IMG/VR virus record: IMGVR_UViG_3300003663_000001
DNA from: a virus
Length of the DNA: 38,819 bases
Strand: one strand, 5' to 3'
Part shown: one piece after another, positions 1,927 to 31,947 of the stretch
Layout of the letters: each line of letters opens with the position of its first letter
Numbering within the stretch: the stretch's first letter is position 1
The notes under the pieces: model-generated
Databases searched by the model: none
Told to the model about the DNA's origin: nothing
What the model saw: the letters and a program-made list of their open reading frames with translations, nothing else
Position numbers and translations under genes: made by a program

Positions 1927-4275
1927 TTATGCGTCAATCGCGCCGAATGCCTTGAAAACTGCGGTGGAGCCAGCTGTTCCGCTGGTAGTACAGACCCAGC
2001 CAATCTTATCGCCGGCAAGGGGATTCGGCGCAACGTATACGTCGCCTCGCACGTAGTCCCCTGACGTAGGAAAAACTACGCCGGGGGCGGTTGAGTAGTT
2101 AACCCGACCAAACATTTTAGCGGTATTGCCGCTACCCAAAATTATGTCACTCATTTTGAGTTTGTGCGGGTATCGTTCGGTGGTGTTCTCCCCGGTGATG
2201 AGTAAAGCTCGCCTAGATGGACTATTGGCAAAATCTAGCACATAGTCGCCGTTTACGAATTTCAATCGCCAGATGTTGCTTTCGCTTGAATGGTTCCACC
2301 CAAGAACTTGCCCGATGCTAGTATTCCCGCCGATAAATGTCGTAATGTCGCCTTTTGTCGTTATCAACGAGTCCAGCTGAGTACCGCCTGAAGAATTAGA
2401 CCTAAGATGGTCGCCAACCATGACCCAGCCAATGGAGCCGCCCAAGACTTGCGTAGGGCCGGAGTCGAATGCGTTGCCGCTCGCGCCGCCTTCCCAGTAA
2501 CATCCAAGGAACACGTTTCTGGCGTTGTCGTTGTCCGCTCGGTAGCCGAAGGCTTGGAAGTAAGTGCCCTCCAGCTTTCCCGCTTCCCACAGCGGAATGG
2601 TGGGGTGAGTGCTTCCCGATCCATATAGAACCCATACAGTGTCGTCTGTACCGGGTACGGTCGCCACTAGCTGCGCTTCTGTTGCGGTCCAGTGTGCGGC
2701 GTAACGGTTGCCCCCGTAGCTTACAAAGGAACTCTGGTCCGCAGCATTGTTACCCGCTGTCGCCACTCCATTAGTGGCAACATGGCAGCCTATGTAAGTA
2801 TTGCCAAGGAACGAGCTGTCAAAGATTCCCGAGCGCCCGTTTCCACTGCAATCAAGCCCAATCGCATAGCCTGAGTTAGCGTCCGCACCATCAACATACA
2901 CCCCGTGTCTGCCGTTGCCGGTAATCCGCATATTAGAGATGGAGAAGTTGTTCGCGTTTCCTTCAACTTCAGCCGTTCCCCTAGATGAGGCGACCACCTG
3001 AATGCCGTTGCCGGGAAATCCATGGACGCGCATGTTGTCAACTACCGCGCGCGCGCGTAGCCAAATTCCGTGGGCGTTGATGTCGGACCCGCCTTGGCTG
3101 ATAACCGAAACGCCGATTATTTTAGAGCCGTCTGCCCGGCCCGAGGGGGTGGCCTCAACGGTGTCGTCTATGGTGTTGTAGCGGTTAACGATGACCCCCC
3201 GCGTATCGGGGGCGAAGATGAGCCGACAGCCTGAAGTGTTTTCGATATGCCCATACATGCCCTCTATGTGGACGATTCGTTTTAGGTTCAGAGTTTTAGA
3301 AAGATAATAGCCTGTATCACGCAGCTTTACCTTCCCCGCGTAGATAATCGTTCCCTCTCCCCGAAAGTCACGGTTAACCGCCGCGTTGATCGCGGCCCAA
3401 TCGTCGGCGGTTCCGTCCCCGACCGCGCCGAAGTCCTCTACCCATACCTCGCTATCATTACTACGAACCCAGCAACCGGTGCCGCCCGCATCGGTTTCGC
3501 CTACGCCGTTAAGAAAATCAGCAAGCCCTGCTTGCGAGCCATCCCACGGAACCGTCGGGCTTATTATGGTGCCGCCGTTGTGGTCGCTCTTGGCGCGGTT
3601 TTCGTCATAAGAGAAAAAGCCCCCACCATTCGGGGCTTCGGTTCTTGGCGCCCAGCCGCCGTGAAAGCTAGTGATGCGAACGGTCGGAACATTGGCTGCC
3701 GGCGTTATTTTCAAAAAGCTCGCAATATCAGGATAGGAAACCTCACCCGACCTGGACATGATCCCCACCCAGGCCTCGCGGAGTGATGCCGTCAATGCCG
3801 TGCCACCCTCAATAGCAGCCGTAACCCTTGTCTTACCCGCAATATAAACCGATTCTGTGACCACCCCATAGAGCACAGCCGAATCCTGCAGCTTCAGTGC
3901 CCGGCCTGGATTGTAAACGCCGGTATGGTTTCCCACGACCTCAAATTGCGTGGCGCTGTACTGCGTGGCAGCCTTTTGCTGAACCCACTCCTGTTGCAAC
4001 TGGCTCGGGTCGCTTACGGGGTCACTCGTCCACACCTCTACATCGTCGGCGTCCTTCACTACAATCTTGTAGCTGCCGTTCAGGTAAATATCGGCATAAC
4101 CGGCGCCATTCAGGATTACCGGGTTCGAGTTCTGAGTTTCGCCACCCTCAGCGGTGAAGGTCGCTTTGGGCGTGTTGGTGCCTGCCTGGTAGGTGTAAAC
4201 CTTGCCGAATGCCAGCGGCTTGCCGGTGTAGCTGTCCCATGCGTAGAACTTGGGACCAATGATTGATACTGCCAT
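1927..4275 (-). CDS. Tailspike / depolymerase with a right-handed beta-helix (pectate-lyase-3-like) domain, 782 aa
   Basis: Phage fibre-type N-terminus 'MAVSIIGPKFYAWDSYTGKPLAFGKVYTYQAGTNTPK'. 'WVEDFGAVGDGTADDWAAINAAVN' is the pectate-lyase-superfamily signature. The body is Gly/Asn-rich. AGGAGAAAA precedes the start. Confidence 0.8.
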   Translation of the reverse strand: MAVSIIGPKFYAWDSYTGKPLAFGKVYTYQAGTNTPKATFTAEGGETQNSNPVILNGAGYADIYLNGSYKIVVKDADDVEVWTSDPVSDPSQLQQEWVQQKAATQYSATQFEVVGNHTGVYNPGRALKLQDSAVLYGVVTESVYIAGKTRVTAAIEGGTALTASLREAWVGIMSRSGEVSYPDIASFLKITPAANVPTVRITSFHGGWAPRTEAPNGGGFFSYDENRAKSDHNGGTIISPTVPWDGSQAGLADFLNGVGETDAGGTGCWVRSNDSEVWVEDFGAVGDGTADDWAAINAAVNRDFRGEGTIIYAGKVKLRDTGYYLSKTLNLKRIVHIEGMYGHIENTSGCRLIFAPDTRGVIVNRYNTIDDTVEATPSGRADGSKIIGVSVISQGGSDINAHGIWLRARAVVDNMRVHGFPGNGIQVVASSRGTAEVEGNANNFSISNMRITGNGRHGVYVDGADANSGYAIGLDCSGNGRSGIFDSSFLGNTYIGCHVATNGVATAGNNAADQSSFVSYGGNRYAAHWTATEAQLVATVPGTDDTVWVLYGSGSTHPTIPLWEAGKLEGTYFQAFGYRADNDNARNVFLGCYWEGGASGNAFDSGPTQVLGGSIGWVMVGDHLRSNSSGGTQLDSLITTKGDITTFIGGNTSIGQVLGWNHSSESNIWRLKFVNGDYVLDFANSPSRRALLITGENTTERYPHKLKMSDIILGSGNTAKMFGRVNYSTAPGVVFPTSGDYVRGDVYVAPNPLAGDKIGWVCTTSGTAGSTAVFKAFGAIDA

Positions 4276-4308: not shown

Positions 4309-7300
4309 CTACGGCATTTCTTCATGTACTTGCTCCAGGGCATCCTTGGCCTGTCGGTAGAACTTCTCAAGAGCCCGGTTTTTCTGCTCATAGTAGCTTT
4401 CTATGGCTGCTTCTTTCTGCTCGGCGGTCATGTTGTCGTTGTACTTGTACGAGGCAATGATTTCCTGCTGATCCTCGAAAGCACTGTCGATCTGGTTAAA
4501 CGCGCCATTTAGACCAATTAGGATCTGGTTTACCTTGTCCCCGGCAAACTCCGGCGCCTTGGACGGATCACGGATGGCTTCACGCTGCAGCATGTTGAAC
4601 GTCTGCTGTGCGGCGGCGGCCTTCACTTTCAGATCCCAATACCCTTCTGTCCATTTTGTACGGTATGGAACCTTCTGGCCAACAAACTGGTGCGTCATGT
4701 AGTCAATTGGCGTACCCCGGTTGAACGGGCGCGGCCCCCAATCGTCTTGTTTCCACAGGGCGGCTTCTGACGCATCGGCAATAATCATCTCCACGTAGCG
4801 TAGGAAGCCCTTGCTGTAGTGTTCTGCCACCAGCGGTGATACCCCCAGGTATTCACCCAGCTTGCGGTACATGATGGGCGTGCGGTCGGTGTACTGGTAT
4901 TCAGCCGGGATATCCATCATGTAATGCGGCACCACGGGCGCACCGGTGAACTTCTCATTGCGCTGAATCTCGATCCAGGGCTGAAGGATGCCGGGATAAT
5001 CCCCGATACCAACGGTGTTCACCAGGGCCCACGCCAGGTGTTCGGATGCTTCTTTGCCGTCCCTGTTCTTCACATAGTCCAGGCCTACTTCCGGCAACGT
5101 GGCAAAGATATGGCCCAGGTCATACGGGCGAGGGATCTTGAACGGCGTATCGGCGCCGGGAATGAAGATCCACCAGAAGCGGGCTTTCTGGTCTGGCGTC
5201 AGCTGCTGGTACCGCTCATCATCCTGGTTCAGCAACCACAAGATCACACTCATCATGGTCAGCACGCTGCCTTTCATCAGGAACACTGCTTTTTTGTCAG
5301 TCAAGCGTGCCAGGTTGGTGCCTTTCATTTCCCCGCGGATCTCGGAAAATTCCCGGGCGGCCTTGTCCAGCCCCTGAATGCCGGCGTTCATAAACGGCAC
5401 GGTGCGTAGGAACTTGGCCCACAGCTCATTGCGGCCCATCTTGCTAAAGTCGGTAGCGATCTCCCGGGCCTCCCAGGCAGCTTCCATTGGTGACGTGCCA
5501 GACTTCACCCCCAGCTCATAATCACCAATGCGCGAACCGTACTCGAAAGCACTGGTGAAGCGATCCCAGCCGGCCAGGAACTTGGCGGCCGCATCCCATC
5601 CGGATTCACTCGGCAGGTCCAGCCGGCGCCGGTCGCGGGTTTCCTGTGTCCGGGCCTCGATCCTGGTGCCGTATCCGCCACCTTGCAGCCTGAAGTCCTT
5701 GTAGGTCTGCGTGTTGAACATGAAGTGAGCCATGCCCCGGAGCGTGCTGTATACCGGGATAAACCGGTTTCGGCTCATAATCGCAGCACTCACGGTATCC
5801 CTGACGGCGTTTGGCCCCAGGAACTGAAACATGCTGGTAACCGTCCGGGTCTGCAGGTTCTTCACTCGATACAGGGCATTCATCACGGCGCCACTGCGCA
5901 GCCCTCTCAGGCCGGTGAGCATGTCCACCAGCAACGGCTCATGCACTTCAAAGTACACCCTCTTGCCATTCACCACGGCGCTGTCCACATAGGTTTCCGT
6001 GGTCTGCGGCTTGTGGCCAAAGGTCCAGAAGCTCAGCAATGCCGGGTTGGCCTCCAGGGCGGCGGCGATATCTTCCACGTCCGTCACCTGTGCGTCCGGA
6101 TCTCCGGCCATAATCATGCCGTCCTTGCTCACGGTTAGCCCCATTTCCGCCATTGCCTCGGCCATCTTGGCGGCCATCTGTGCCTGCTCAACCTGCACCT
6201 TCTTGCTGTCCGGTGCGATCTTCGCGGCAAACAGTGCGCCGTCCTGGCTGTTCATAATGTCGTTGTAGAGCGTTGCCTTGGCACGGGCAATGATAGCGGC
6301 CCGGATATTGGCCTGAAGCCCGTCCACAATGTTCTCGGCAATGTCCCGGGTATTCTGCGTGCCACCAGTCAGGCGCTTGCCGATTTCACTCACGCCCATT
6401 TCGCGGCCGTCCTCGATGCGCTCAATCACCCGGTGGAACGGCACGTAGTTCTGGTTCATCTTCTTGAAGGCTTTGCGCTGGCTCTCGTCAATCAGCCCCA
6501 TCTGCACGTAGAAATCCAGCATCCGGTCATTGAACTTCTGGAACTCGGAAAAGATCTGCGGGAATTCAGGATGCTTCTGCCCCAGGGCAAGGCCGGCGTC
6601 GATCTCCTGGTCGGTGAACAGGTTTTCCCGGCCCTGCTTCTTCAGCTCCTGGCCACGGCGGGCCTTGAAATACTCCATCAGATCATCGAACCGGCGCCAC
6701 CCGTGTTTGGTGGCCGGCTTGAACACTTCTTCCAGCCCCTTGCCGCTGAACTCAAAGTAGCCATCATCGGTCAGGCGCGGCGTGCCATCCTGAATCACGG
6801 CCTCATGCACGGATTCAGCTCCGTTCACCATCTGGAATTGCTTATACGGGCTCACGGTGGCCTCGCCAACTTCGCCTTTCAGCGTGCGCTCCACCACCTT
6901 GGCGGCATGGATCTTGTCAATTACCTGCTGGCGGTACCGCTCCAACGGATAGCTGTTCTGGTATTCCAGGATCTGCTGGCTGGCGGTCAGCTCACGGCCA
7001 GACTTGGCCCGCAATTGCGCCCGTGGCCCCTGCAGATACCAGCGGTGCATTTCGTCCTGCAGGCGCTTCATCTTGCGATCCAGCACGGCGTCATCTTTCA
7101 TCACCTGTTCAAACCGCTGCGTGAACAGTGGCGCCCTGGCCTTGGCCTCGCTGTAGTTGGTCAGCCACAGGCGGACAAACTCGGCAAAACCTTCCTTCGC
7201 CTTCAGGTTCTTCTTGCTGGTGTAGCTCAACGCCTCCACTTCCTTGCGGTATTTGCTGTCCTTGTACTCCCGGGTAAACCGCTTGTTGTAGCGGTAGTGC

Positions 7301-10300
7301 ATATCCAGGTAGTGCGCCATTTCGTGCGCCATCACCTCTACATCGTCGTAGTTCTTCACCCGCACTTCGCTGTTGTTGCTGCGGTAGAAGCCCAGCTTTG
7401 ACTTGCCCCGGACCTTGCCGAAGTAGATACGTTTGCCGATCAGATCCTGCAGCATGAACCGGATACCCTCACGGCGGGTCGGCTTTTCCTCCGGCTTCAG
7501 GGTCACGGTACGGTCACCCAAGGTAAAGCGGCCATTGTCCGGGCGCCGTGGCACGCCTGTCATGCTGTACGGCGGCTGCCACTGCGGCATAGGCACATCG
7601 GCACCCATATCGCTCATCATGGCGCTGGTGGCGTCCTGGTTGGTGGCGTCCTGGTCCTTCTTGGGCTGTAGCTCGGCAATCACCAACTGGTGGCGGGCCT
7701 TCACCTTGGACAATTCCTCGGCCTGGTCCCACTCCTGCACTTGTTCTTCCAGCTTCGGCAGATCCCTTTCGGCCTGCTTCACCCGGGCGGCCTGCTGTTT
7801 GGCCTCGGCGTCGATGGCTGAAATGGTATTGGTCACCCGGCGTGCCAGGCCGGTGGCGTCTGCACTGCCGATATCCTTGATATCCACCTGGTGCTCCATG
7901 GCGCCGTCCAAGGTCAGCACAAACCGTGTGCCAGTGACGTTATCCAGGGTCATGCTAAAGCCGGCATAGCTGCCGATAGCCTTGGATTCGGTGCCGGCGT
8001 CTGACATTTTCGCGGCTTCCGCCAGGATCTCCTGGCCGGCGTCCTTGTGCTTGTCGAACGTCTGGCCATTCACGGTGATAGTGAAGTCCTTGGGCGCGGC
8101 CTTAGCCTTCTTCACGTCCTGCGCGTACTTCAGCAAGCGATCCTTGCCCCGCTCCACAATGGATTTTTCGCGGCGGATGGCGTCACGGATCCGGAACTGT
8201 TCGCGGTCGTGTTCTTCCTCGGCCTGTTCCAGCTTTCGCAGTTTCTGGCGAAGGTCCATTTCTTCCAGGATCAGCGGATTGCCACTGGATGCCGCTTTCA
8301 TCTCGGCGGCGTTGGCCGATTCTGCCCCCAAGTCCTCGATCTCGCGCTGTTTGGTGTTGCCCTTGCGCACCTGCTCGATAAACCGGGCCTTGGTTTCAAT
8401 GGTCTGCCACATGCGGCTGTCCAGCGTCTGCTTGGTGGCGTAGCGGTTGATCTCGATTTCAAAGCCATCCGGGTCACGGTCGTACAGCTCGTTACCCTGG
8501 CGGATAATCCGGCCCTCCCGCTGTTCCAGGTCTGACGGCCTCCACGGTGCGTCCATGTGGTGGAGCCCCACCAGGCGGGTCTGCACGTTCATGCCGGCGC
8601 CCATCTTGGCGGTGGAGCCCATCAGCACGCGAACACGGCCTGTGCGCACCTTGGCGAACAACTCAGCCTTCTGTAGCTCGGTGTTGGCGTCATGGATATA
8701 GGCCACTTCCGATTCCGGAATGCCCAGGTTAATCAGCTTCTGGCGCAAGTCGTCATACACACTGAAATCACCATCCAGGGCTTCCAGCTCGTCCGGGCTC
8801 ATTCGGTCCAGCTGTTCGCTGGCGGCCTCGTCGCCATCTTCGGCACGCTGGATCAGGTCACGAATGCGGTTGGCTTCCTGCGCCTTGGCGCCCTTGGGCG
8901 TACTTAGGTCGATGAATACCAGCTGCGCACCCTTGTCGTCGCTCCACTGGTCGTACAGGGCTTTAATCCGGCTGGCGGCCTCATTGATCTTGCTGTCCGG
9001 GTTGTCGGCGTACAGTGCCGGGTCGATCAGGCGCATATCCAGGGCGGCCTTCCGGGCATCGCTCATAATCTTGAGCATGTTGTCGGCGCCCTTTTCAGGC
9101 TTCTTCGGCAGGTGTTCAGCACGCCATACCAGTGAGCCCTTCGGATAAACCTCGTTGCCCCGCTCATCCTGCACGGGCACACCAATGTAGTCGGCCTGGT
9201 CCTCGCTGCGCTCCACTACAATGTTGTTGGGCTTCCCGCCTTTGATCTTCGGTACCGGCAGGCGCTTGCCCTGTGCCGCCAGCTGCTTGTTGATATCGTC
9301 GCGGTTTACCACGTCACCAAAGGTCAGGTACCGCTGCATCAGCTCGGGCAGGTTCACGAACTTGCTGAAACGGCTATTCAGCTTGTAGCTTCCGGTTGGT
9401 GACAGCTCCCAATCGGTGACCACTTCCCCGTACATGCTGGCCCAGGCGTCGAAGTGTGCAATGCCCTGGTCCTGCAGGGTCTGGTAATCCAGGAACCGCT
9501 GCATGGTATACATTTCGGCCATGGTGTTGCTGATTGGCGTGCCGGTGGCGAAAACCACGTTGTTGCCGCCAGTGCGCTCCAGGATGGATTGCACCTTCAT
9601 AAACATATCGGCGGCCTTCTGGCTGCCCTGCGGGTTACCCAGGCCGGCAACGCGGGTCATGCTGGTGGCAAATCCCAGGTTCTTGAACTCATGGGCTTCA
9701 TCCAGGAACAGGGCATCCACACCCAATTCACCAAATGTCAGGTTGTCGTCCTTGTTCTCGGCATCGAACAGGCGCTTGAGCCTTTCCTGCAGGCGCTCTT
9801 TTTGCTTCTCGATCTGTTTGATGGAGCGTGCGCCCTTGCCCTCCTGGTCGCGGATAGTGGAAATAGCGGTGTCGATATCCCGGATCTGCTGGTTGATGAA
9901 CCGCTCTTGGAACTCGGCATCCATTTCGACCTTGCCAAACGAGGAATGCGCCACAATCACGGCGTCCCAATCGCCGGTGGCAATCCTGGCGAACAGGCGC
10001 TTGCGGTTGCCCTTCTCAAAGTCTTTTTTGGTGGCGGCCAGAATGTTGGCGTTCGGGTACAGCTTGGTGAAGTCCTCGGCCCACTGGCCCACAAGGTGAT
10101 TCGGTACCACAAACATGGGCTTCTTGGCGCGGCCTGTCCGGCGTAGCTCCATGGCCCCGGCAATCATAGTGAAGGTTTTGCCGGCGCCCACAACGTGATC
10201 CAGCAACGTGGTACCGCTCTGCACAATCCGCCAGGCGGCGTTGGCCTGGTGCGGCCGCAACTTCACAATGTCGTCACCCACCTTGCCCGGGAACGTCAGG

Positions 10301-13300
10301 TGTGAACCGTCATACTCCCGCACCCGGTCGGTGTTGAAGGTATCGTTATAGAGCCTGGTCAGGCGAACACGGCGGGCATCGTCTTTCCAGATCCAGCGGC
10401 GGAACTCGGCCTTTACTCGCTGGATCTTCTCGTTGGCGGCGTTGGTGGCGGATTCGTTGATAACGGTGGTGCTTTCGTCCACTCGATCACGAATCACAAT
10501 GCTCTTGTCGTTTGCCGCGGCGGTCAGGATATCGCTCACCTGCGCACGGTCGGTACCGTATTGGCTTTCAGCGGCGGTGGTCGGGCTGCCTTTGATGTTC
10601 CACTTGGCCATTACCGGGTTGTAGGTTGCCTTGCCGTTGGCGTTACCCAGGATATGGTCGGCAAACTCGGTCACCACTTCCGGTGGCAACCAGTGGGCGC
10701 CAGGCTTCACCCGGATATCGACGGCTTCAATGTCCTCCGGCTGCACGTCCTTCAGGGCCTGCACGTTGCGCTCAAAGCGCGGCATATCCTTGGCCATGCG
10801 CTCGGCCATTGCCAGCTTCTGCTTCACGTTGCCAGACAGGTATTCGTCGCGGGATTCCCAATTATTGGGCGTACTCTCGAAAACCAGGTCGCCAAGCTCG
10901 GCCACAATGGCGCTTTCCGTCTTGCCGTACAGCTGGCTCATGTACTCCATATCCACCCGGCCCTTTTCGGACAGGCTGGCGGTCAGTGCGTCCTTGGCAG
11001 TGGTGGCCTTTTCCGGTGCCTTGTAAGGCTGCTGTGTCCGGGTCCGGAAGATGGCGGCCTTCTCGGCACTCGGCTTGCGCGGGGTTTCCCCGGTGCGCTT
11101 CGCTACGGTCGGGCTGATCCCCTTGTCAAAGGATTCTTCCAGGGCGGCCAGCTGCGGCCAGGTTGGATCATCCCGGAACAGTCGCTTGTTGGCATCCAGG
11201 TTGATGGGTCCGTTCTTCTTTACGAACTGGTCATACACCCGGTTGAGTCGGTCACGCAGTGCGCCCAGGGCCTCATCCTTCACGTTCTCGGTCAGCTGCG
11301 CCTTACGCAAATCCGCGAACACGTCACGGACCTTAATCAGACCACGCACCCGTTCTTCGGCCTTTTTGCTCGGCATTTCCACGGGCTCAGACCGGGCCTG
11401 CCCCATTTCGCTTTCCAGTCGGATGCTGATCTGGTCGCCATCCAGGAACATGCTGCCCACCTTCACGTTCTCCACGCTGGTCGGCAGGGTTACTTCCTCG
11501 GATACCGGCTCAGTGGTGGCGGCGTCCATAAAGTCTTTCGGCAGGCTGGCCATGGCTTCCTGCAGTAGCGCGTTGGTGTCCTGCCCCTGCCTTGCCACCA
11601 GGGCGGGCTCATTCGGCCCGTACATCGAACCGTAGGCGCCCCATTCACCCAGCATCATTCCCGGATTGCGGTCGAAGTATTCATTCAAGGGAACGTCGAT
11701 ACCATTGGCATCCTTCACGGTGTTGACCACGGACCAGGATTCACCAGACGGCTGCTCACCTTCCCGGCGCTTACGCAGAAAAATGATATCGGTGGTGACT
11801 TCGGTACCGGCGTTCTTCAGGAATGCGTTGTTGGGCAGTCTCACGGCGCCCAGCAAATCGGCACGCTCGGCCAGGTAATCACGCGCCATCTTGTTGTTGC
11901 CGTCCATCAGGCGGCTCGATACCACCATGGCCAGCACGCCATTGGGCTTCAGTCCGGCCATAGACTTGGCGAAGAAGTAATTGTGAATGCTCATTTTCGA
12001 CAAGGCTTTACGCTTGCCGTCATACAGCTTCTGGTTACCAAACGGCGGGTTGCCAATGGCCAGGTCAAAATAGCCATCCGGCATGTTGAACTCTTGGAAT
12101 CCCATCGGTGCCTGAATGTTGGCACCAGGGTACAGCTTCTGTGCAATGCCCCCGGTGATATGGTCCAGCTCCACCCCGGCAATGCTGCTCTTGGATCTCA
12201 CGCCACCCGGCATGAATCCCAGGAAGTTGCCGGTACCAACGGACGGCTCCAGCACGCGGCCACCCTGAAAGCCCATGTTCTTCACGGCCTTCCAGATCTC
12301 GGTGACGATCTCCGGGCTGGTGTAGTGGGCATCCTGCGTACTGCGGCGGGCTGCATCGTATTCCGCTTCGGTCAATGCTTCCTGCAGCTGCTTGGCTTCC
12401 TTCTCCCAGCCTTTGGTTATCTTGCCACGGTCACCTACAAACGCTTGAGGCAGGCCACCCCAGCCCACATACCCGGCCAGGATCTGTTGTTCCTCCGGTG
12501 TGGCCTGGCGGCCTTCCTCGTTCAGTTGCTTCAGGGTCTGGATAGCTTTCAGGTTGTTCTTGAACTTGGTTTTGGCTCCGCCAGCACCAATGTTCATTTC
12601 CGGCGTCAGTGTGAAGAACTTGGCCGGCCTGTCGCCTGCTGGCTCTGATCTCTGCGTTGTTGCGCCTTTTGGCGTTGGCGCCTTCTTTGCCGCTTTTTCT
12701 GTCGCATCTACGCTTCCCTCAGATCCTCGGGTTGCGGGCTGTCCGCTTCCAGCGTCCTGCTCATCGTCTGCAGGGCGTCGCTCAGTATCGCGGGCCCGTT
12801 GCCCTCCGGCTTGTCGTTCTCCGGTTCCCCCGGTGGAAACAGGTACCTCTCCCTCGCCATCTGAAACGCCTCGTCCGGCTGGTACCCCGCTTCCTCCAGC
12901 TGACTCACCTGCTGGTACGTCTGTTCCGCTGCCTGTTTCAGCATCGGTTCCAGTGTCCCCTGCTTCTTCAGGCTCTGATACAGCTTCGGCCTGTTCTCCT
13001 GCCAGTGGCTTCTGGCCTGGTTGATCCAGTTCTGTAGGTTCATCTTTCGTTACCCTTTCGGTGGCGGATTTGATTTGTTCAGCTTCCGGAACAAAATAAA
13101 GGCTTCCATCCTTTCCGCTGACAATTACGCCGTCGTGGTCGCCATCTTCCATTCGATCAATGATCTTGTCAGTATTTTGGTCGAAATAGTTCGTCTCATT
13201 GGAGTCAACACTAATAACCAAAGGGTTCTGCATGGACAGGTATGCTTCAATAACGCGAGGCGAGTCGCCGGCCCTCTGGTTCCCGTCATTATCTTCCGGC

Positions 13301-15588
13301 TCAGTGTAAAACTCCGCATCTTCCCGGTCAGAATGGAAGTGAGCACCCCTCAATCCTTCTTCGGTGTACGGGGTGTTCTCGCCGGTTCGATCCATGTCGA
13401 ACGTGTCGAAGTCCTGACGGGTGCCGTGATAAACCACCAACGGATCGCCGTTTTCGTCCACCACTTTGCTGTCGCCAAACCAACGGTCAAAGTCATTTAC
13501 CGGCTCTGATCGCTCGGCAGTATCACCCTGAGCACCTTGGTTCCCGGTGGCAGGCTGGCCAGAAACCCCGGTGTCACCTCCGGACCTTGTGACGCCTGGC
13601 GGCGTTTCGCCCCGGCCGGTCAGATCATCCTCAAGCAACGCCTGGCGCATTTCATCCTGTGTCATTTCATCGACACGGCGGCGGGTTTGGGTGTCTTGCC
13701 TGCGCTCTACGTTGGCTGTTTCCTGATAAGTGCGCTTCAGCCTGGCAATAGACTGCCGGCCAATTTCCGGCTTCATACTACGGTGTGTTTCCAGCGGCAC
13801 GCCTTCCGCCACTTTCTCGATACGGTTACCCTGTCGCGGGCTGAACTCCAGCGGCTTTCCTGCCGGCGTTGTCATAATGGTGTAGGCGCCGTTTGGCGTT
13901 ACTTCTGCGTACACGTCCAGGGTTTCGGGCGCACCCTCTGCCGCGTCAGGTTCCGGCTCCGTTGCCGGTGCATCAAGGTCCGACAGCCGCTGGCGGGCTT
14001 CCTCGGTCGGCATATCCCACAACTGCGCATCATCCACACCCGCTTCCCGCAACTGGTTACGTTCAAACGGTGTCAGATCATCAGCGGCCTGCCCGGTTTC
14101 CTGTTCTGCTTCTGGCTCAGGCTCTGGCCGGTCGGATTCCTCTGGCGGTTCCTCCACGGCTGGCGGCCTGCTGGCGATCAGCGGCACGTTGACGTTACCG
14201 GGCATTTCACCCTGGCGCGGCGCGATATCAATGCCTCGTTCCTTCAGCTTTTGCGCTACCAGGTCACCCATGGTCGGGCGCTCCGGTGCCCGTACCTGTT
14301 CCATCTGTGCCTGTGAAGGGTCCAGGGCTGCGGTGGCGGCCTGGTCTGCCGGCCCAAATTCGGCGGCTCTGGCCTGGCGGTTGATCTCTCGTGCAACCTG
14401 GCGCTCTGGTCCACCCTTGGCAGCTGCGCTGGCGGTACCGGCTGCGGTGCCATAGGTTCCGCCAGCAACGAAACCAGCAAGGCCTCGGTCAGCGGCTTCG
14501 GAAAAACTCATCGCGGCATCGGTACCAAAACGCTCACCAACGTATTCGACCACACCTTCCTGGAACAGCTCGGTTGTGGCTTCTTTCGCGCCAGCCCCGG
14601 CGCCACCAGCTGCTACCCGGGCAAGTCCATTTCTCATGGCCAGTTTGCCAACGGATTCAGCCCCGGCCTTTGTGATCCCCTTCGCACCATAACGCTCCAA
14701 TATGGCAGAGCCTAGGGCGAACGGCGCGGCTTGCAGCACGTCAGTCAGTTCAGCCTTTTCCTTGCCCTTGTTCTTCGCTCGGACCTCACCCATTTCACCA
14801 GAACGGGCAATCACATATCCGGGCAGTGACATGGTAACCGCCACCATATCCGGAATGGATTTTATGCCCTGCTCAAAACCGTACTGCAGAACTTCACCCC
14901 AGGCAGATCCAGACAGCGGCCCGTTCTGGCTGAATTCAAACTTCACCTGCTCCCAGGTGTTATCCGGCACATAACCGGCGTCTAGGTTCTTCAGGTTTTC
15001 GGCGGCAACGTCCAGGGCCTCAGTGCCACCTTGCGCCTTATACTCGGCGTATTCCTTGCCATTCAGGTATTTCGGTACCAGTCCGTCATCCCATACAAAG
15101 CCTCCCATGGAAAAGGCTTCTTCCCCGGCCTCAGCCCCGGCATTGATGGCGGTCAGTACGCCACCACCAAGATCACCTACACGCTCGGCGGCACCACGGG
15201 CGGCGTTGTAGTCCTGCACTTCTTCCCATGATCCAGTGGCGCCCCTGGTTGGCTCTGGTGGTAGTTCATAGCTTCCGGTGGCCCCATTGGGTCCGGATTG
15301 CTCGATCTGTGCAGGCTGTGTCTGCTCAGGCTTAATAGGCGGGAATGTACGTCCGGCGTTAGAGTTATTCGGAGTGCCTGCCTCCGCTGAATCCTTCGTC
15401 CTGTCGCTACCAGAAAACCATTGAAACCAGCTATCTCCTTCAGGCTCTTTGGCTTGCTCCTGGTTGTCGCCATATAGCTCGTTGTGCCAGCTGGCCAGCT
15501 CTCTTGCACCCTCGGTATCTCCTGCCAGGTGCGCCTTCTCAAGCGCGTTTAGTAACTGATCCTTGGAAGGCTGCTGGTTCTCGCTCAT
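4309..15588 (-). CDS. Giant multidomain (polyvalent, DarB-like) virion-module protein, 3759 aa: ART-like + N6-adenine MTase + SF2 helicase + HExxH metallopeptidase + long uncharacterised C-terminus
   Basis: Uninterrupted ORF. Start placed at the ATG at 15588 ('MSENQQ', GAGG upstream, 7 nt after the upstream stop) rather than at 15657. Domain motifs are listed as separate features. It lies between the internal-protein candidates and the tailspike. Confidence 0.85.
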   Translation of the reverse strand: MSENQQPSKDQLLNALEKAHLAGDTEGARELASWHNELYGDNQEQAKEPEGDSWFQWFSGSDRTKDSAEAGTPNNSNAGRTFPPIKPEQTQPAQIEQSGPNGATGSYELPPEPTRGATGSWEEVQDYNAARGAAERVGDLGGGVLTAINAGAEAGEEAFSMGGFVWDDGLVPKYLNGKEYAEYKAQGGTEALDVAAENLKNLDAGYVPDNTWEQVKFEFSQNGPLSGSAWGEVLQYGFEQGIKSIPDMVAVTMSLPGYVIARSGEMGEVRAKNKGKEKAELTDVLQAAPFALGSAILERYGAKGITKAGAESVGKLAMRNGLARVAAGGAGAGAKEATTELFQEGVVEYVGERFGTDAAMSFSEAADRGLAGFVAGGTYGTAAGTASAAAKGGPERQVAREINRQARAAEFGPADQAATAALDPSQAQMEQVRAPERPTMGDLVAQKLKERGIDIAPRQGEMPGNVNVPLIASRPPAVEEPPEESDRPEPEPEAEQETGQAADDLTPFERNQLREAGVDDAQLWDMPTEEARQRLSDLDAPATEPEPDAAEGAPETLDVYAEVTPNGAYTIMTTPAGKPLEFSPRQGNRIEKVAEGVPLETHRSMKPEIGRQSIARLKRTYQETANVERRQDTQTRRRVDEMTQDEMRQALLEDDLTGRGETPPGVTRSGGDTGVSGQPATGNQGAQGDTAERSEPVNDFDRWFGDSKVVDENGDPLVVYHGTRQDFDTFDMDRTGENTPYTEEGLRGAHFHSDREDAEFYTEPEDNDGNQRAGDSPRVIEAYLSMQNPLVISVDSNETNYFDQNTDKIIDRMEDGDHDGVIVSGKDGSLYFVPEAEQIKSATERVTKDEPTELDQPGQKPLAGEQAEAVSEPEEAGDTGTDAETGSGTDVPAGESAGGSGVPAGRGVSDGEGEVPVSTGGTGERQAGGQRARDTERRPADDEQDAGSGQPATRGSEGSVDATEKAAKKAPTPKGATTQRSEPAGDRPAKFFTLTPEMNIGAGGAKTKFKNNLKAIQTLKQLNEEGRQATPEEQQILAGYVGWGGLPQAFVGDRGKITKGWEKEAKQLQEALTEAEYDAARRSTQDAHYTSPEIVTEIWKAVKNMGFQGGRVLEPSVGTGNFLGFMPGGVRSKSSIAGVELDHITGGIAQKLYPGANIQAPMGFQEFNMPDGYFDLAIGNPPFGNQKLYDGKRKALSKMSIHNYFFAKSMAGLKPNGVLAMVVSSRLMDGNNKMARDYLAERADLLGAVRLPNNAFLKNAGTEVTTDIIFLRKRREGEQPSGESWSVVNTVKDANGIDVPLNEYFDRNPGMMLGEWGAYGSMYGPNEPALVARQGQDTNALLQEAMASLPKDFMDAATTEPVSEEVTLPTSVENVKVGSMFLDGDQISIRLESEMGQARSEPVEMPSKKAEERVRGLIKVRDVFADLRKAQLTENVKDEALGALRDRLNRVYDQFVKKNGPINLDANKRLFRDDPTWPQLAALEESFDKGISPTVAKRTGETPRKPSAEKAAIFRTRTQQPYKAPEKATTAKDALTASLSEKGRVDMEYMSQLYGKTESAIVAELGDLVFESTPNNWESRDEYLSGNVKQKLAMAERMAKDMPRFERNVQALKDVQPEDIEAVDIRVKPGAHWLPPEVVTEFADHILGNANGKATYNPVMAKWNIKGSPTTAAESQYGTDRAQVSDILTAAANDKSIVIRDRVDESTTVINESATNAANEKIQRVKAEFRRWIWKDDARRVRLTRLYNDTFNTDRVREYDGSHLTFPGKVGDDIVKLRPHQANAAWRIVQSGTTLLDHVVGAGKTFTMIAGAMELRRTGRAKKPMFVVPNHLVGQWAEDFTKLYPNANILAATKKDFEKGNRKRLFARIATGDWDAVIVAHSSFGKVEMDAEFQERFINQQIRDIDTAISTIRDQEGKGARSIKQIEKQKERLQERLKRLFDAENKDDNLTFGELGVDALFLDEAHEFKNLGFATSMTRVAGLGNPQGSQKAADMFMKVQSILERTGGNNVVFATGTPISNTMAEMYTMQRFLDYQTLQDQGIAHFDAWASMYGEVVTDWELSPTGSYKLNSRFSKFVNLPELMQRYLTFGDVVNRDDINKQLAAQGKRLPVPKIKGGKPNNIVVERSEDQADYIGVPVQDERGNEVYPKGSLVWRAEHLPKKPEKGADNMLKIMSDARKAALDMRLIDPALYADNPDSKINEAASRIKALYDQWSDDKGAQLVFIDLSTPKGAKAQEANRIRDLIQRAEDGDEAASEQLDRMSPDELEALDGDFSVYDDLRQKLINLGIPESEVAYIHDANTELQKAELFAKVRTGRVRVLMGSTAKMGAGMNVQTRLVGLHHMDAPWRPSDLEQREGRIIRQGNELYDRDPDGFEIEINRYATKQTLDSRMWQTIETKARFIEQVRKGNTKQREIEDLGAESANAAEMKAASSGNPLILEEMDLRQKLRKLEQAEEEHDREQFRIRDAIRREKSIVERGKDRLLKYAQDVKKAKAAPKDFTITVNGQTFDKHKDAGQEILAEAAKMSDAGTESKAIGSYAGFSMTLDNVTGTRFVLTLDGAMEHQVDIKDIGSADATGLARRVTNTISAIDAEAKQQAARVKQAERDLPKLEEQVQEWDQAEELSKVKARHQLVIAELQPKKDQDATNQDATSAMMSDMGADVPMPQWQPPYSMTGVPRRPDNGRFTLGDRTVTLKPEEKPTRREGIRFMLQDLIGKRIYFGKVRGKSKLGFYRSNNSEVRVKNYDDVEVMAHEMAHYLDMHYRYNKRFTREYKDSKYRKEVEALSYTSKKNLKAKEGFAEFVRLWLTNYSEAKARAPLFTQRFEQVMKDDAVLDRKMKRLQDEMHRWYLQGPRAQLRAKSGRELTASQQILEYQNSYPLERYRQQVIDKIHAAKVVERTLKGEVGEATVSPYKQFQMVNGAESVHEAVIQDGTPRLTDDGYFEFSGKGLEEVFKPATKHGWRRFDDLMEYFKARRGQELKKQGRENLFTDQEIDAGLALGQKHPEFPQIFSEFQKFNDRMLDFYVQMGLIDESQRKAFKKMNQNYVPFHRVIERIEDGREMGVSEIGKRLTGGTQNTRDIAENIVDGLQANIRAAIIARAKATLYNDIMNSQDGALFAAKIAPDSKKVQVEQAQMAAKMAEAMAEMGLTVSKDGMIMAGDPDAQVTDVEDIAAALEANPALLSFWTFGHKPQTTETYVDSAVVNGKRVYFEVHEPLLVDMLTGLRGLRSGAVMNALYRVKNLQTRTVTSMFQFLGPNAVRDTVSAAIMSRNRFIPVYSTLRGMAHFMFNTQTYKDFRLQGGGYGTRIEARTQETRDRRRLDLPSESGWDAAAKFLAGWDRFTSAFEYGSRIGDYELGVKSGTSPMEAAWEAREIATDFSKMGRNELWAKFLRTVPFMNAGIQGLDKAAREFSEIRGEMKGTNLARLTDKKAVFLMKGSVLTMMSVILWLLNQDDERYQQLTPDQKARFWWIFIPGADTPFKIPRPYDLGHIFATLPEVGLDYVKNRDGKEASEHLAWALVNTVGIGDYPGILQPWIEIQRNEKFTGAPVVPHYMMDIPAEYQYTDRTPIMYRKLGEYLGVSPLVAEHYSKGFLRYVEMIIADASEAALWKQDDWGPRPFNRGTPIDYMTHQFVGQKVPYRTKWTEGYWDLKVKAAAAQQTFNMLQREAIRDPSKAPEFAGDKVNQILIGLNGAFNQIDSAFEDQQEIIASYKYNDNMTAEQKEAAIESYYEQKNRALEKFYRQAKDALEQVHEEMP
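7100..7450 (-). other. Zincin-like metallopeptidase motif region of the giant protein
   Basis: 'VEVMAHEMAHYLDMH', with HEMAH at 7312-7326. The domain limits are approximate. Confidence 0.5.
8480..10262 (-). other. Superfamily-2 (SNF2/DEAD-like) helicase domain of the giant protein
   Basis: Walker A 'VGAGKTFT' (10174-10188), motif II 'LDEAHEFKN' (DEAH at 9691-9702) and motif VI 'QREGRIIRQGN' (8491-8523). Confidence 0.8.
11640..12625 (-). other. N6-adenine DNA methyltransferase domain of the giant protein
   Basis: SAM motif I 'VLEPSVGTGNFLGF' (12223-12249) and catalytic motif IV 'IGNPPFG' (12037-12051). It is preceded by 'LAGYVGWGGLPQAF', typical of methylase-helicase fusion proteins. Confidence 0.8.
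12708..13043 (-). CDS. Candidate overlapping ORF (111 aa) in the +1 frame of the giant gene, confined to its low-complexity linker
   Basis: ATG at 13043, preceded by AAGGG 9 nt upstream and by an in-frame TAA 9 nt upstream; TAG stop at 12708. The translation looks helical and globular ('MNLQNWINQARSHWQENRPKLYQSLKKQGTLEPMLKQAAEQTYQQVSQLEEAGYQPDEAFQMARERYLFPP'). Hand-counted GC3 is 92/111 here, against 43/111 for the giant frame over the same bases. Confidence 0.35.
   Translation of the reverse strand: MNLQNWINQARSHWQENRPKLYQSLKKQGTLEPMLKQAAEQTYQQVSQLEEAGYQPDEAFQMARERYLFPPGEPENDKPEGNGPAILSDALQTMSRTLEADSPQPEDLREA
13066..13500 (-). other. ADP-ribosyltransferase-like domain of the polyvalent-protein type (tentative)
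   Basis: 'FDRWFGDSKVVDENGDPLVVYHGTRQDFDTFD...GAHFHSDREDAEFYT...VIEAYLSMQNPLVI' matches my recollection of the 'WFGDSKVVDxxGxPLVVYHGT' signature of ART-like modules in large phage and plasmid proteins. Confidence 0.4.
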
Positions 15589-15595
15589 TGCTACC

Positions 15596-16480
15596 TCACT
15601 GGCTATACATTTTGAGTAGTTCGTTGCGGTCCATGGTACCGCCCTGACCAAGATCACGCACGCTGATTCCCAGCTGGCGGGCGGCTTGTGTTACCGCTGC
15701 TGAACGTGTTTCAGCCTGGCCTTGTGAGTATAGCTGTGCGGCACGGGTTGTAATGGCCTGCACCTTGGAACGGTTTTCCGGGTTCAGATTTTGCAGGTTG
15801 CCCTGCTGGTCGAAGATCCCACCCAGCAATTCGGCTGCCTGGCGGAACATCAGGCTTTCATCGGATGATTTGAAGTCGCTACCAGATCCGCCAGCCTGCG
15901 CTTTCAGCAAGGCATTGCTGGTGGTGGACTCGATCATCTGACCATCTTTGTAAAGCCGGTCCTCGCCACCAAAGGTGATCTTCTCCGGGTTTTTCAGCAT
16001 GTCGTCCAGCTCACGGGCCCGCGCAAGCCCCATCTGCACAAAGTTGGGGTCATATTCTTCGGGCATGTTCGCGGCGACCTCCGGCGCCAGGTTCTGGCGG
16101 GCACGCTGGTACCGCTGCGCCTGTTCCTCTGGCGTGCCACCCTGCAGGATAAAGGTGCTCACCCGGCCCAGGGTTTCCACATTTTGTTCCATCTGTTTGC
16201 GTTGGCGCTCGTCCATGTTCTTGAACGCTTCCTGCACTTGCGTAGCTTCTTCCGGCGCGAACGCAATCAGCTCACGCTCTGCCTGCTTAGCATCCGGGCC
16301 ACCTGCCGCCATCCGGGAACGCAAGCTGTTCAGTGTCTGGCCACGCTGGCGGGCTTGATCGCGGTCCTCTTTCTTCCAGTCCAGTGCCAGGGCATTGGCC
16401 TTGCGCTGCTGGCGGGAGCCCTTTACCGCTTCCGTGGTGCGGTAGACTTCACCCATATCAATGCCAAACTGATTAGCCAT
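15596..16480 (-). CDS. Hypothetical virion-module protein (internal/ejection protein candidate), 294 aa
   Basis: ORF track. The assignment rests on its position directly upstream of the giant gene. The sequence is helical and Gln/Ala/Arg-rich, and I recognise no motif. Confidence 0.5.
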   Translation of the reverse strand: MANQFGIDMGEVYRTTEAVKGSRQQRKANALALDWKKEDRDQARQRGQTLNSLRSRMAAGGPDAKQAERELIAFAPEEATQVQEAFKNMDERQRKQMEQNVETLGRVSTFILQGGTPEEQAQRYQRARQNLAPEVAANMPEEYDPNFVQMGLARARELDDMLKNPEKITFGGEDRLYKDGQMIESTTSNALLKAQAGGSGSDFKSSDESLMFRQAAELLGGIFDQQGNLQNLNPENRSKVQAITTRAAQLYSQGQAETRSAAVTQAARQLGISVRDLGQGGTMDRNELLKMYSQ

Positions 16481-30584: not shown

Positions 30585-31022
30585 CTATTTCCCCCTGGCC
30601 TGCTGGTAGCCGTTGGGCTGTGAATGCCGGTGATAGGCTCCCCGGTTCTGCTGCTGCTGTCCCTGCTGTTCGTCGGGCTTGCTGTCCAGCATCTGCATGC
30701 TGCCGTTGATATCCACCACTACTTCGGTCGTGTATCGGTCCTGCCCATCCTGGCCCTGCCACTTCCTGGTTTGTAGCTTGCCCTCGATGTAGACCTTGCT
30801 GCCCTTTTTCAGATACTGGCCGGCCACTTCTGCAATCTTCCCGAATAGCACAATCCGGTGCCATTCCGTTTTCGGTACCAGCTGGCCGGTGCCCTTGTCC
30901 TTGTAGCTTTCGTCGGTGGCAATGTTCATGTTCGCCACGGCGCTGCCGTTGGGCGTGTACCGGGTTTCTGGATCTTGGCCCAGGTTACCGACCAGAAATA
31001 CTTTGTTGACGCCTCTACTCAT
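30585..31022 (-). CDS. ssb: Single-stranded DNA-binding protein, 145 aa, without the canonical acidic C-terminal tip
   Basis: '[39 protein letters not shown]...[37 protein letters not shown]' is a classical OB-fold SSB. The C-terminus is '...[13 protein letters not shown]', not D-D-D-I-P-F. Confidence 0.9.
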
Positions 31023-31755
31023 GCTTATTTTCTCCCGGACAATTCAGTGAATGCTCTTGCAGCCAGAGATGGAACTTGTCCATTTCCAATGGCTCTAAGG
31101 CGGTCCATTTGGGCGGCCACTTCATTAGGATTTCGTTTGATTCGGCTGTAATCATCTTGTGAAAGCATCGCGCCGATTGCTCCTGTACGTTGCCGTCTGC
31201 GTGATTCTTGCGAATGAGTGAGGAAATTCTGAGAAACGTCCACGCCTTCCAGCACTGGGCAGTCGGGCGAAGTAGCGACAATCCAGATACGCTCGCCTTC
31301 GCATATCGAACCGACGGCTCCTGCACCCAGCACTCCCCATCGCGCATTGAACCCCAGCGAGGCCAAGTCTCCGAGTACAACTCCGAGTCCTCGAGAAGTG
31401 AGAGCTGGGGAGTTTTCCACGAACACGAAATAGGGTCGTACTTCGCTAATGATTCGACGGAACTCAGACCATAGCCCGCTACGCGCTCCTTCAAGCCCCG
31501 CCCCCCCTCCTGCGACGGATATGTCCTGGCAGGGAAACCCTCCAGAAATGACATCAACACGGCCTCGCCATGCTGTTCCGTCAAAAGTCGTAACGTCGGA
31601 CCAAATTGGGAAAGGCGGGAGGCATCCATCATTTTGTCGTTGCGCCAGAACCCCTGCGGCGTAGGCATCACGTTCCACTGCGCAGATGGTTCGCCATCCG
31701 AGAAGATGTCCACCGAGTATTCCTCCACCAGCGCCTGCGAAAAGAGCCAGCTCAT
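31015..31755 (-). CDS. Co-extensive +1-frame ORF (246 aa, frame B) over the whole C5-MTase gene; candidate overlapping or recoded gene
   Basis: ORF track. No stop for 741 nt, with the start 4 nt and the stop 10 nt from those of frame A. It contains '[14 protein letters not shown]' and '[21 protein letters not shown]'. Hand-counted GC3 is 163/246 versus 113/244 for frame A. Its ATG directly abuts the upstream TGA, in that ORF's frame. Confidence 0.4.
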
Positions 31756-31759
31756 TCAT
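31025..31759 (-). CDS. Compact DNA (cytosine-5)-methyltransferase, 244 aa (frame A)
   Basis: Motif I 'LFAGAGGG' (31721-31742), motif IV 'GGFPCQDIS' (PCQ at 31526-31537), motif V/VI '[20 protein letters not shown]' (31405-31420), '[19 protein letters not shown]', and motif X '[11 protein letters not shown]' (31070-31090). The ATG overlaps the upstream TGA (ATGA). Confidence 0.75.
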
Positions 31760-31947
31760 TGATCCCTCCCATACTGCCGCTTCAGCTTCTTCAGGCGCTT
31801 CTCCATCATCCGGGCCTTTACCGGGCCTACCTGGTGCCGGTCACGCTTGAGGCGCCGGCTCAGGTCGGCAATGTATTCACGCATTGCGGCCGGGTTGCGA
31901 ACGTCCGGGATCTGCTCGTCCTGTTGGGTTGGCTGTTCCGGGCTCAC
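31756..31947 (-). CDS. Hypothetical small basic protein, 63 aa
   Basis: ORF track. ATGA-type coupling at both ends. Lys/Arg-rich C-terminus '[18 protein letters not shown]'. Confidence 0.5.
   Translation of the reverse strand: MSPEQPTQQDEQIPDVRNPAAMREYIADLSRRLKRDRHQVGPVKARMMEKRLKKLKRQYGRDQ

Follow-up and report, generated by a model that had tools for sequence, protein, structure and literature searches.

We have analysed the viral record IMGVR_UViG_3300003663_000001 of IMG/VR (38,819 nucleotides; this whole stretch of DNA is called the window below), in which two ATG-initiated open reading frames (ORFs) occupy the same DNA on the minus strand, ORF A (31025..31759, 244 aa) and ORF B (31015..31755, 246 aa), the latter in the +1 frame of the former. 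This arrangement had been picked out in a preliminary description of the sequence, and both the ORF list and the sequence itself confirm it. In our view the locus probably encodes one C5-cytosine methyltransferase as two fully overlapping polypeptides that would assemble like the alpha and beta chains of M.EcoHK31I, A being the proposed alpha-like subunit and B the proposed beta-like one. We favour two full-length products because the unselected halves of both frames are open, because the ATG of B is invariant, because some sites that are silent in A are fixed, and because the AlphaFold2 models of the two proteins are complementary. The translation of B, the formation of a heterodimer, its enzymatic activity and its having a target sequence are what we infer from these observations.

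Two open frames and a switch of selection

When A was shuffled synonymously 20,000 times, the probability of a stop-free B was P = 3.5e-4, with a mean of 5.0 stops, and when its codons were resampled from the phage's own usage the probability of an open B was P = 5e-5; taken the other way round, that of an open A given B was P <= 5e-5. Shuffled versions of A do not, then, commonly keep the +1 frame open, which was the outcome that the preliminary description had set against its own proposal. To counter ascertainment bias, 80 loci were fetched by frame A alone, and 78 of them had a recognisable frame-A ORF. The first stop of frame B falls within the last few codons of A in 77 of these 78, the third frame averages 15 stops (14 over the gene in the window), and the G+C content of the genes goes from 42% to 62%. 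Synonymous shuffling of 79 of the frame-A-selected loci leads one to expect 4.5 frame-B stops per locus, with a probability of zero stops of ~0.006; none was observed in 76 of the 79. The two parts of the gene were also taken separately. Over the 161-codon N-terminal region frame B is expected to contain 3.3 stops and has none in 40 out of 41 loci, and over the target-recognition region frame A is expected to contain 3.1 stops, given the B protein, and has none in any of the 41. Both unselected halves are kept open, then, a double requirement that arises only if each frame gives a full-length product. At two loci (L152 and L004) we found 1-nt indels that shift both frames together.

The third-position G+C counted by hand in the preliminary description was reproduced (0.463 for A and 0.663 for B; the mean over six of the window's long confident genes is 0.70). 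As a way of picking the real frame this measure was rejected, since the third position of B is the first position of A, which is G+C-rich in most genes.

The ATG of B is conserved across loci. At the frame-A-selected loci there are 64 unique contexts of the form ATGAAYGA, and in all of them the second codon of A, which specifies Asn, is AAT and never AAC; in the pooled contexts, a set partly biased by the way in which the loci were retrieved, A starts with GTG or TTG in about one third of the cases and B always with ATG. There is also a variant subfamily in which the start reads ATG(A/T)CATGG, the ATG of B coming first and that of A 5 nt later. In these variants, which have an N-terminal extension and whose starts were recovered by anchoring on RELALF, B keeps the peptide M[ST]W[LM][FI]S[KRN]AL, and A reads MAIQQS, MADKSG or MDDKQR.

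The selected frame changes along the gene in the order A, B, A. We took 18 independent close pairs of genes (77-96% nucleotide identity, without indels) and tallied their differences by codon position of A, the first position of A being the third position of B. Over motifs I-VIII the differences at positions 1, 2 and 3 were 182, 77 and 435, i.e., 63% on the third position of A, the pattern of a coding frame A; between motifs VIII and IX they were 278, 102 and 102, with 58% on the third position of B, the pattern of a coding frame B. Motif IX (21, 2 and 5) is likewise read in frame B, and at motif X (13, 9 and 38) frame A is once more the coding one. The diversity profiles of 217 unique genes and of 112 genes aligned on B agree with these counts. 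Within the part of the gene that A also reads, B is under constraint of its own at A-silent sites. The third base of A-Ala132, which encodes the Pro in TWPRWG of B, is C in 189 of 189 sequences, that of A-Gly135 is G in 211 of 217, and that of A-Ala222 is C in 186 of 189; other four-fold sites of A in the same alignment reach a diversity of 0.6-0.72, with a mean of 0.46 against the 0.725 that would be found if all sites were interchangeable. Some four-fold sites of A are thus invariant because conserved residues of B are encoded there.

The family assignments place the two halves of a methyltransferase on the two frames. A matches the Pfam family DNA_methylase (PF00145) at 3.5e-27, over profile positions 4-196 of 324 only, and phrog_363 over its full length at 3.4e-56. 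On this one polypeptide the FxGxG of motif I is followed by the PCQ of motif IV, which holds the catalytic Cys, and then by the ENV of motif VI. The family consensus of motif VIII is ..HxRERIWIVA, in which the invariant Arg is the second one only (R157), and the window reads GERIWIVA at this site. Motif X (AIGNGQVP) is also in A, and its N226 is invariant. The target-recognition domain (TRD) and motif IX do not lie within the A polypeptide; homologous elements sit in frame B, which matches phrog_1008 (labelled 'DNA methyltransferase' in PHROGs) at 2.4e-11 and has no match in Pfam or NCBIfam.

A single-frame relative allows these blocks to be aligned directly. The gene gp22 of the Mycobacterium prophage prophiT49-1 (L277:730-2112, 461 aa) keeps everything in one frame, first motifs I-VIII, then four repeats of the type LLPTPxAxD, then motifs IX and X, and we compared it with both frames of a relative of the window gene (locus L003). 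Residues 5-163 of frame A align to gp22 9-186 (E = 1e-35), the PTP repeats of frame B align to gp22 258-307, in its target-recognition region (BLASTP, E = 5e-9), motif IX of gp22, EWMQGWPLGWVT, is matched by the B profile (hhalign 76%, E = 2.2e-5), and the C-terminus of frame A aligns to motif X of gp22, IIGNGVVPQQ, in residues 411-453. Together with the constraint on B over the target-recognition region and motif IX, these alignments indicate that the methyltransferase motifs are split between the frames, as the preliminary description had claimed for a gene fully overlapped by a second one.

The structural predictions follow the same division. The predicted local distance difference test (pLDDT) score of the AlphaFold2 model of A is 85-96 over residues 1-165, 54-62 over 165-225 and 92 over 230-240, the helix of motif X, and a Foldseek search with this model retrieved M.HaeIII and M.HhaI at E ~1e-13 over ~171-185 columns, which correspond to the large domain only. 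In the model of B, whose overall score is 62, most of the first 100 residues stay <50, a helix at 60-73 being the exception, and residues 160-240 reach 79-85. The predicted confidence profiles of the two models are complementary, confidence being high in the catalytic domain of A and low in its middle, and low in the N-terminal half of B and high in its C-terminal half.

Proposed organisation of the locus

In the arrangement that we propose, one ribosome-binding site would feed two ATGs, 4 nt apart. The tandem out-of-frame starts of the window, ATGAATG (31753..31759, on the minus strand like all the features below), comprise the ATG of A (31757-31759) and that of B (31753-31755), and the stops of the two ORFs are 10 nt apart. 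A Shine-Dalgarno-like GGGAGGG (31764..31770) lies 4 nt upstream of the A ATG and 8 nt upstream of the B ATG, and both starts could be served by this one predicted ribosome-binding site; similar purine runs end 1-6 nt ahead of the A start in most of 202 related unique contexts.

The first ATG would give A, with the catalytic large domain that binds S-adenosylmethionine (AdoMet). Its motifs I-VIII make up the A-selected segment (A codons 1-162, 31274..31759), in which motif I (LFAGAGGG) is found at 31721-31744, motif IV (PCQ) at 31517-31543, motif VI (ENV) at 31406-31429 and the motif VIII-like GERIWIVA at 31274-31297. A linker of ~55 aa without a conserved sequence of its own would then lead to the helix of motif X; this linker (A codons 163-219, 31103..31273) is poorly conserved in A, has a low model confidence, has its sequence dictated by B, and is free of stops. 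Selection returns to frame A over A codons 220-244 (31028..31102), where the C-terminal helix and motif X (31070-31102) lie.

The second ATG would give B, the first ~100 residues of which would be mainly a translated leader. Residues 1-100 (31456..31755) begin with the conserved N-terminal peptide MSWLFSQAL (31729-31755), are predicted to be mostly disordered, and are largely a shadow of motifs I-IV of A, yet they are open. The C-terminal ~120 residues would contribute the target-recognition elements and motif IX, that is, the small domain. The B-selected segment (B residues ~128-218, 31102..31374) is the proposed target-recognition (small) domain, and includes ETWPRWGSM (31345-31371), a PTP-type element (31234-31275) and the motif IX-like element (31102-31137). 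A and B would come together in an active heterodimer, as the alpha and beta chains of M.EcoHK31I do, and the enzyme would presumably methylate the phage DNA, protecting it against host restriction.

The locus is tightly packed at both ends. Upstream, the TGA at 31756-31758 is the stop of a 63-aa ORF (31756..31947) in the frame of B, and overlaps the ATG of A and abuts that of B; in 89 of 198 contexts the TGA of the start region likewise ends an upstream ORF in frame B that is 40 codons long or more. Downstream, the stop of B overlaps by 8 nt the start of the gene for the single-stranded DNA-binding protein (SSB) (31015..31022; ATGAGTAG). As far as can be judged from the sequence, the overlaps at both ends suggest translational coupling along a tightly packed early-gene operon.

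At some distance from this locus, the window contains a giant ORF of 3,782 aa (4309..15657, minus strand) with the polyvalent-protein domains LPD38, ART-PolyVal ADP-ribosyltransferase, Eco57I-type methylase and ResIII/SNF2 helicase, which looks like a DarB-like polyvalent protein. With the Eco57I-type methylase domain the phage would carry a second, unrelated methyltransferase domain.

Alternative readings of the locus

Several points weigh against an enzyme of two obligate subunits. That both polypeptides would be made and required is argued indirectly, from the avoidance of stops in two frames and the conserved ATG of B, and the likeness to M.EcoHK31I is drawn from the published description of that enzyme. 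Frame B has a stop in its N-terminal half at three loci (L116, L202 and L021), and so the leader would not always be needed. The model of B, which is of low confidence, found no match in PDB with Foldseek (best E = 2.9), and the B profile gave only a chance-level match to the PDB sequences (E = 0.23). A chimera that reads A, then B, then A is exactly colinear with the canonical enzyme, something that recoding also predicts. The preliminary description had proposed a Pfam search with such chimeras, and those built for the window, L003 and L005 scored no higher than A alone; as the Pfam model is weak past motif VIII, this result speaks neither for nor against recoding. Finally, two related contigs from metagenome-assembled genomes (L132, 130-850, and L147, 1442-2160; 91% identical) have a TAA in frame A at codon 166, after motif VIII, with frame B intact, and five of the six differences between them at motif X fall on the third position of A (p ~0.02), which a simple two-subunit model does not predict. 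An ATG is found 6 codons past the frame-A TAA. The pattern in these two contigs could be due to an internal restart, to a -1 shift from B into A, or to recent decay, and it keeps the alternatives that involve recoding alive.

One such alternative, which we consider unlikely, is that programmed frameshifting takes place twice, by +1 once motif VIII has been read and by -1 at the junction of motifs IX and X, and yields a single polypeptide of the canonical methyltransferase type that would join A(1-162), B(162-218) and A(220-244). It was among the options of the preliminary description, and there are points in its favour: the chimera is colinear with the single-frame relatives, the -1 join that had been noted after KWT of B, onto the motif X string of A, is exact, and the selected frame switches at exactly both points. 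The junction between IX and X reads Leu-Lys in both frames in many relatives (B TTA AAG; A CTT AAA; e.g., L003 ~3870-3890), and the sequence C TTA AAG at this junction, taken from the consensus and uncounted, contains a shift-prone A AAG, which could be a genuine slippery site or could simply follow from two conserved motifs sharing the same bases. The two contigs L132 and L147, which keep A-type selection at motif X despite the upstream frame-A TAA, would also fit. However, two frameshifts do not explain why B is open for ~160 codons from its start, why A is open across the target-recognition region, or why the ATG of B is invariant, and it is because these stop-free unselected halves and this invariant start are left unexplained that we disfavour double recoding. 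Besides, the junction of the window itself (31090-31105) reads TTA GAG / CTT AGA, without the slippery A AAG, both frames being open over their full length; no stop or obvious stall signal was noticed in frame A at the first junction, where no systematic scan was run; and M.EcoHK31I works as two separately expressed proteins (PMC2836561).

Rather unlikely, in our judgement, is a hybrid in the manner of M.AquI, in which A would supply motifs I-VIII and B, translated from its own ATG, would shift by -1 after motif IX and in this way gain motif X. Such a hybrid would account for L132 and L147, and a beta subunit of this kind, which holds motifs IX and X besides the distal variable region, is described for M.AquI in PMC3404938. 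It has no need, though, for the openness of A across the target-recognition region that is found in 41 out of 41 loci, the window junction lacks a slippery site, and the support from L132 and L147 amounts to six substitutions (p ~0.02).

We are just as doubtful about the idea that B has an independent and unrelated function, in what would be a classical overprinting, or a separate role for its N-terminal half, A then being a complete enzyme with a very short target-recognition region. The N-terminal peptide of B is indeed kept in two differing frame-A contexts, and B belongs to no Pfam family, but in its conserved part it can be aligned with a canonical C5-methyltransferase (gp22), over the latter's target-recognition repeats and motif IX, and the reading that A gives of the target-recognition region is unconserved and has a low-confidence model.

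That B should be a shadow ORF without function, or that the locus should be a pseudogene after a recent frameshift or an artefact of assembly, is hardly credible: many strings in the N-terminal half of B are literal +1 readings of the conserved motifs of A, and gene callers take either frame, contig by contig, but the shuffles give P <= 3.5e-4, both frames are open in hundreds of independent diverged contigs and in cultured phages, substitutions in the target-recognition region and in motif IX are distributed as expected of a coding B, and some sites silent in A are invariant. The option of a recent frameshift with an alternative frame open by chance, which the preliminary description had listed, is excluded because both frames are open in hundreds of diverged loci. 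Among the three options considered there, conserved dual coding, i.e., the production of two overlapping subunits in our reading, is the one that fits best.

Distribution and comparison with known systems

B has 2,281 homologues in a protein database clustered at 90% identity, with full-length coverage and identities down to ~40%, and the best 120 of these 2,281 are unnamed or 'hypothetical' and have no Pfam domain. The B profile matches 26,795 clusters of 50% identity at E <= 1e-3 and 5,199 at E <= 1e-30, mostly unnamed, and nearly all of the best 150 matches begin at profile position 1. The preliminary description had stated that B-like proteins are annotated as hypothetical, and in this it was right. 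Called homologues of A number at least 8,000, and the named ones are DNA cytosine methyltransferases; since homologues of both proteins have been called, gene callers must pick A in some contigs and B in others. On the window's own contig the gene call is B (P0001, 100% identical). The -1 frame of loci matched by B, which the preliminary description had wanted inspected for FxGxGG, PCQ and ENV, carries them at nearly every locus that we looked at: among 28 IMG/VR loci found via B, nearly all have an open frame A with the three motifs.

The nested +1 ORF is found in cultured phages of Salmonella (S9-5), Klebsiella, Pseudomonas, Vibrio, Ralstonia and Acinetobacter, and likewise in those of Burkholderia (phi1026b gp67), Bacteroides, Lacticaseibacillus, Paenibacillus and E. 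coli. At least 143 species genomes of GTDB contain it as well, as seen in stretches of 3.7 kb taken irrespective of prophage genes. The annotation of these genes in GenBank is inconsistent. Pseudomonas phage phPA-G (L030:1501-2229) lists B only, as hypothetical, and Salmonella phage S9-5 lists A only. Both ORFs are annotated in E. coli phage K1ind2 (L272:1023-1952), as ORF29 and ORF28 ('Mte8-like protein'), and in Paenibacillus phage Bloom (L273:1008-2063), as gp56 and gp57, the second called 'DNA cytosine methyltransferase'. In the searchable literature on 'Mte8' and on overlapping or alternative-frame phage cytosine methyltransferases we found no account of a family-wide arrangement, and in PMC5582158 and PMC6070908, which deal with the phage groups of K1ind2 and Bloom, no functional interpretation of the overlap. 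The preliminary description, which suggested that the two-frame arrangement may be overlooked, did not mention the precedent of M.EcoHK31I (PMC2836561), nor the GenBank records with both ORFs.

We regard it as an even question whether an obligate alpha/beta enzyme (~245 aa each, ATGs 4-5 nt apart) is conserved throughout the tens of thousands of clusters from phages and prophages of Proteobacteria, Firmicutes, Bacteroidetes and cyanobacteria. If it is, this gene family would rank, in size and in length, near the top of those known in prokaryotic viruses to code twice on the same strand, and the real target-recognition region of M.EcoHK31I-type enzymes would lie in the beta frame. Tens of thousands of 'hypothetical proteins' would really be the second subunit of a methyltransferase, and elsewhere what is called a methyltransferase would be one without its DNA-recognition half. 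Such a very large and deeply conserved same-strand overlap over the full length of ~740 nt, with a functional reason behind it and a natural single-frame comparison at hand, would suit the study of how two proteins share one sequence. With two close out-of-frame starts that share a ribosome-binding site, the production of two subunits would be coupled in a simple manner. Orphan phage methyltransferases, moreover, affect the evasion of restriction by phages, and naturally split methyltransferases have already been used as scaffolds for targeted methylation (PMC2836561).

The nesting of one part of an enzyme in an alternative frame of the other is known from M.EcoHK31I, and what we describe would be of the same kind, in a complete-overlap, tandem-start form. 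M.EcoHK31I (Lee, Kam and Shaw 1995) is a C5-methyltransferase of two polypeptides with the target YGGCCR, whose beta chain is encoded wholly inside the alpha gene in another reading frame; alpha has motifs I-VIII as well as motif X, beta has motif IX, both chains are required, the enzyme is active when they are expressed from separate plasmids, and in vitro it can do without the first ~42 residues of beta (PMC2836561; PMC3404938). In the window, too, a beta-like ORF is nested in an alternative frame of an alpha-like gene, and motif mapping and the frame-specific substitutions assign motifs I-VIII and X to A and motif IX to B. There are, however, several differences. The overlap is complete here, and B starts 4 nt after A, on a ribosome-binding site that both would share, rather than at an internal start. 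The substitutions place the target-recognition elements in B, whereas the literature puts the TRD of M.EcoHK31I in alpha. The window gene is an orphan phage gene beside that for SSB and not a member of a restriction-modification pair, and its family is very large.

M.AquI is another split C5-methyltransferase of two polypeptides, and according to PMC3404938 its beta chain carries the distal variable region together with motif IX and motif X. It resembles the window in having a catalytic subunit with motifs I-VIII and a second subunit with the distal variable region and motif IX, and differs in that motif X is on beta, whereas here it is in frame A, and in that we saw no nesting in an alternative frame reported in PMC3404938. 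Closer at hand, phages K1ind2 and Bloom carry, like the window, a B-like ORF in the +1 frame inside a C5-methyltransferase gene; unlike in the window, B starts internally, 88 nt after the A start in K1ind2 and 202 nt after it in Bloom.

The single-frame phage enzymes with (W/L)PTPxAxD repeats, of which gp22 is our example, have the same blocks in equal order, that is, motifs I-VIII, the PTP repeats, EW(L/M)xGxPxGW(V)T as motif IX and GNGxVP as motif X. All of them stand in one frame in gp22, whereas in the family of the window the PTP repeats and motif IX are displaced to the +1 frame. The +1 frame of gp22 is itself open for ~220 codons and reads B-like (..ETWPTSGTTRNG..SSLLPTPRAAAD..), which suggests that single-frame and two-frame genes are linked in evolution, in either direction.

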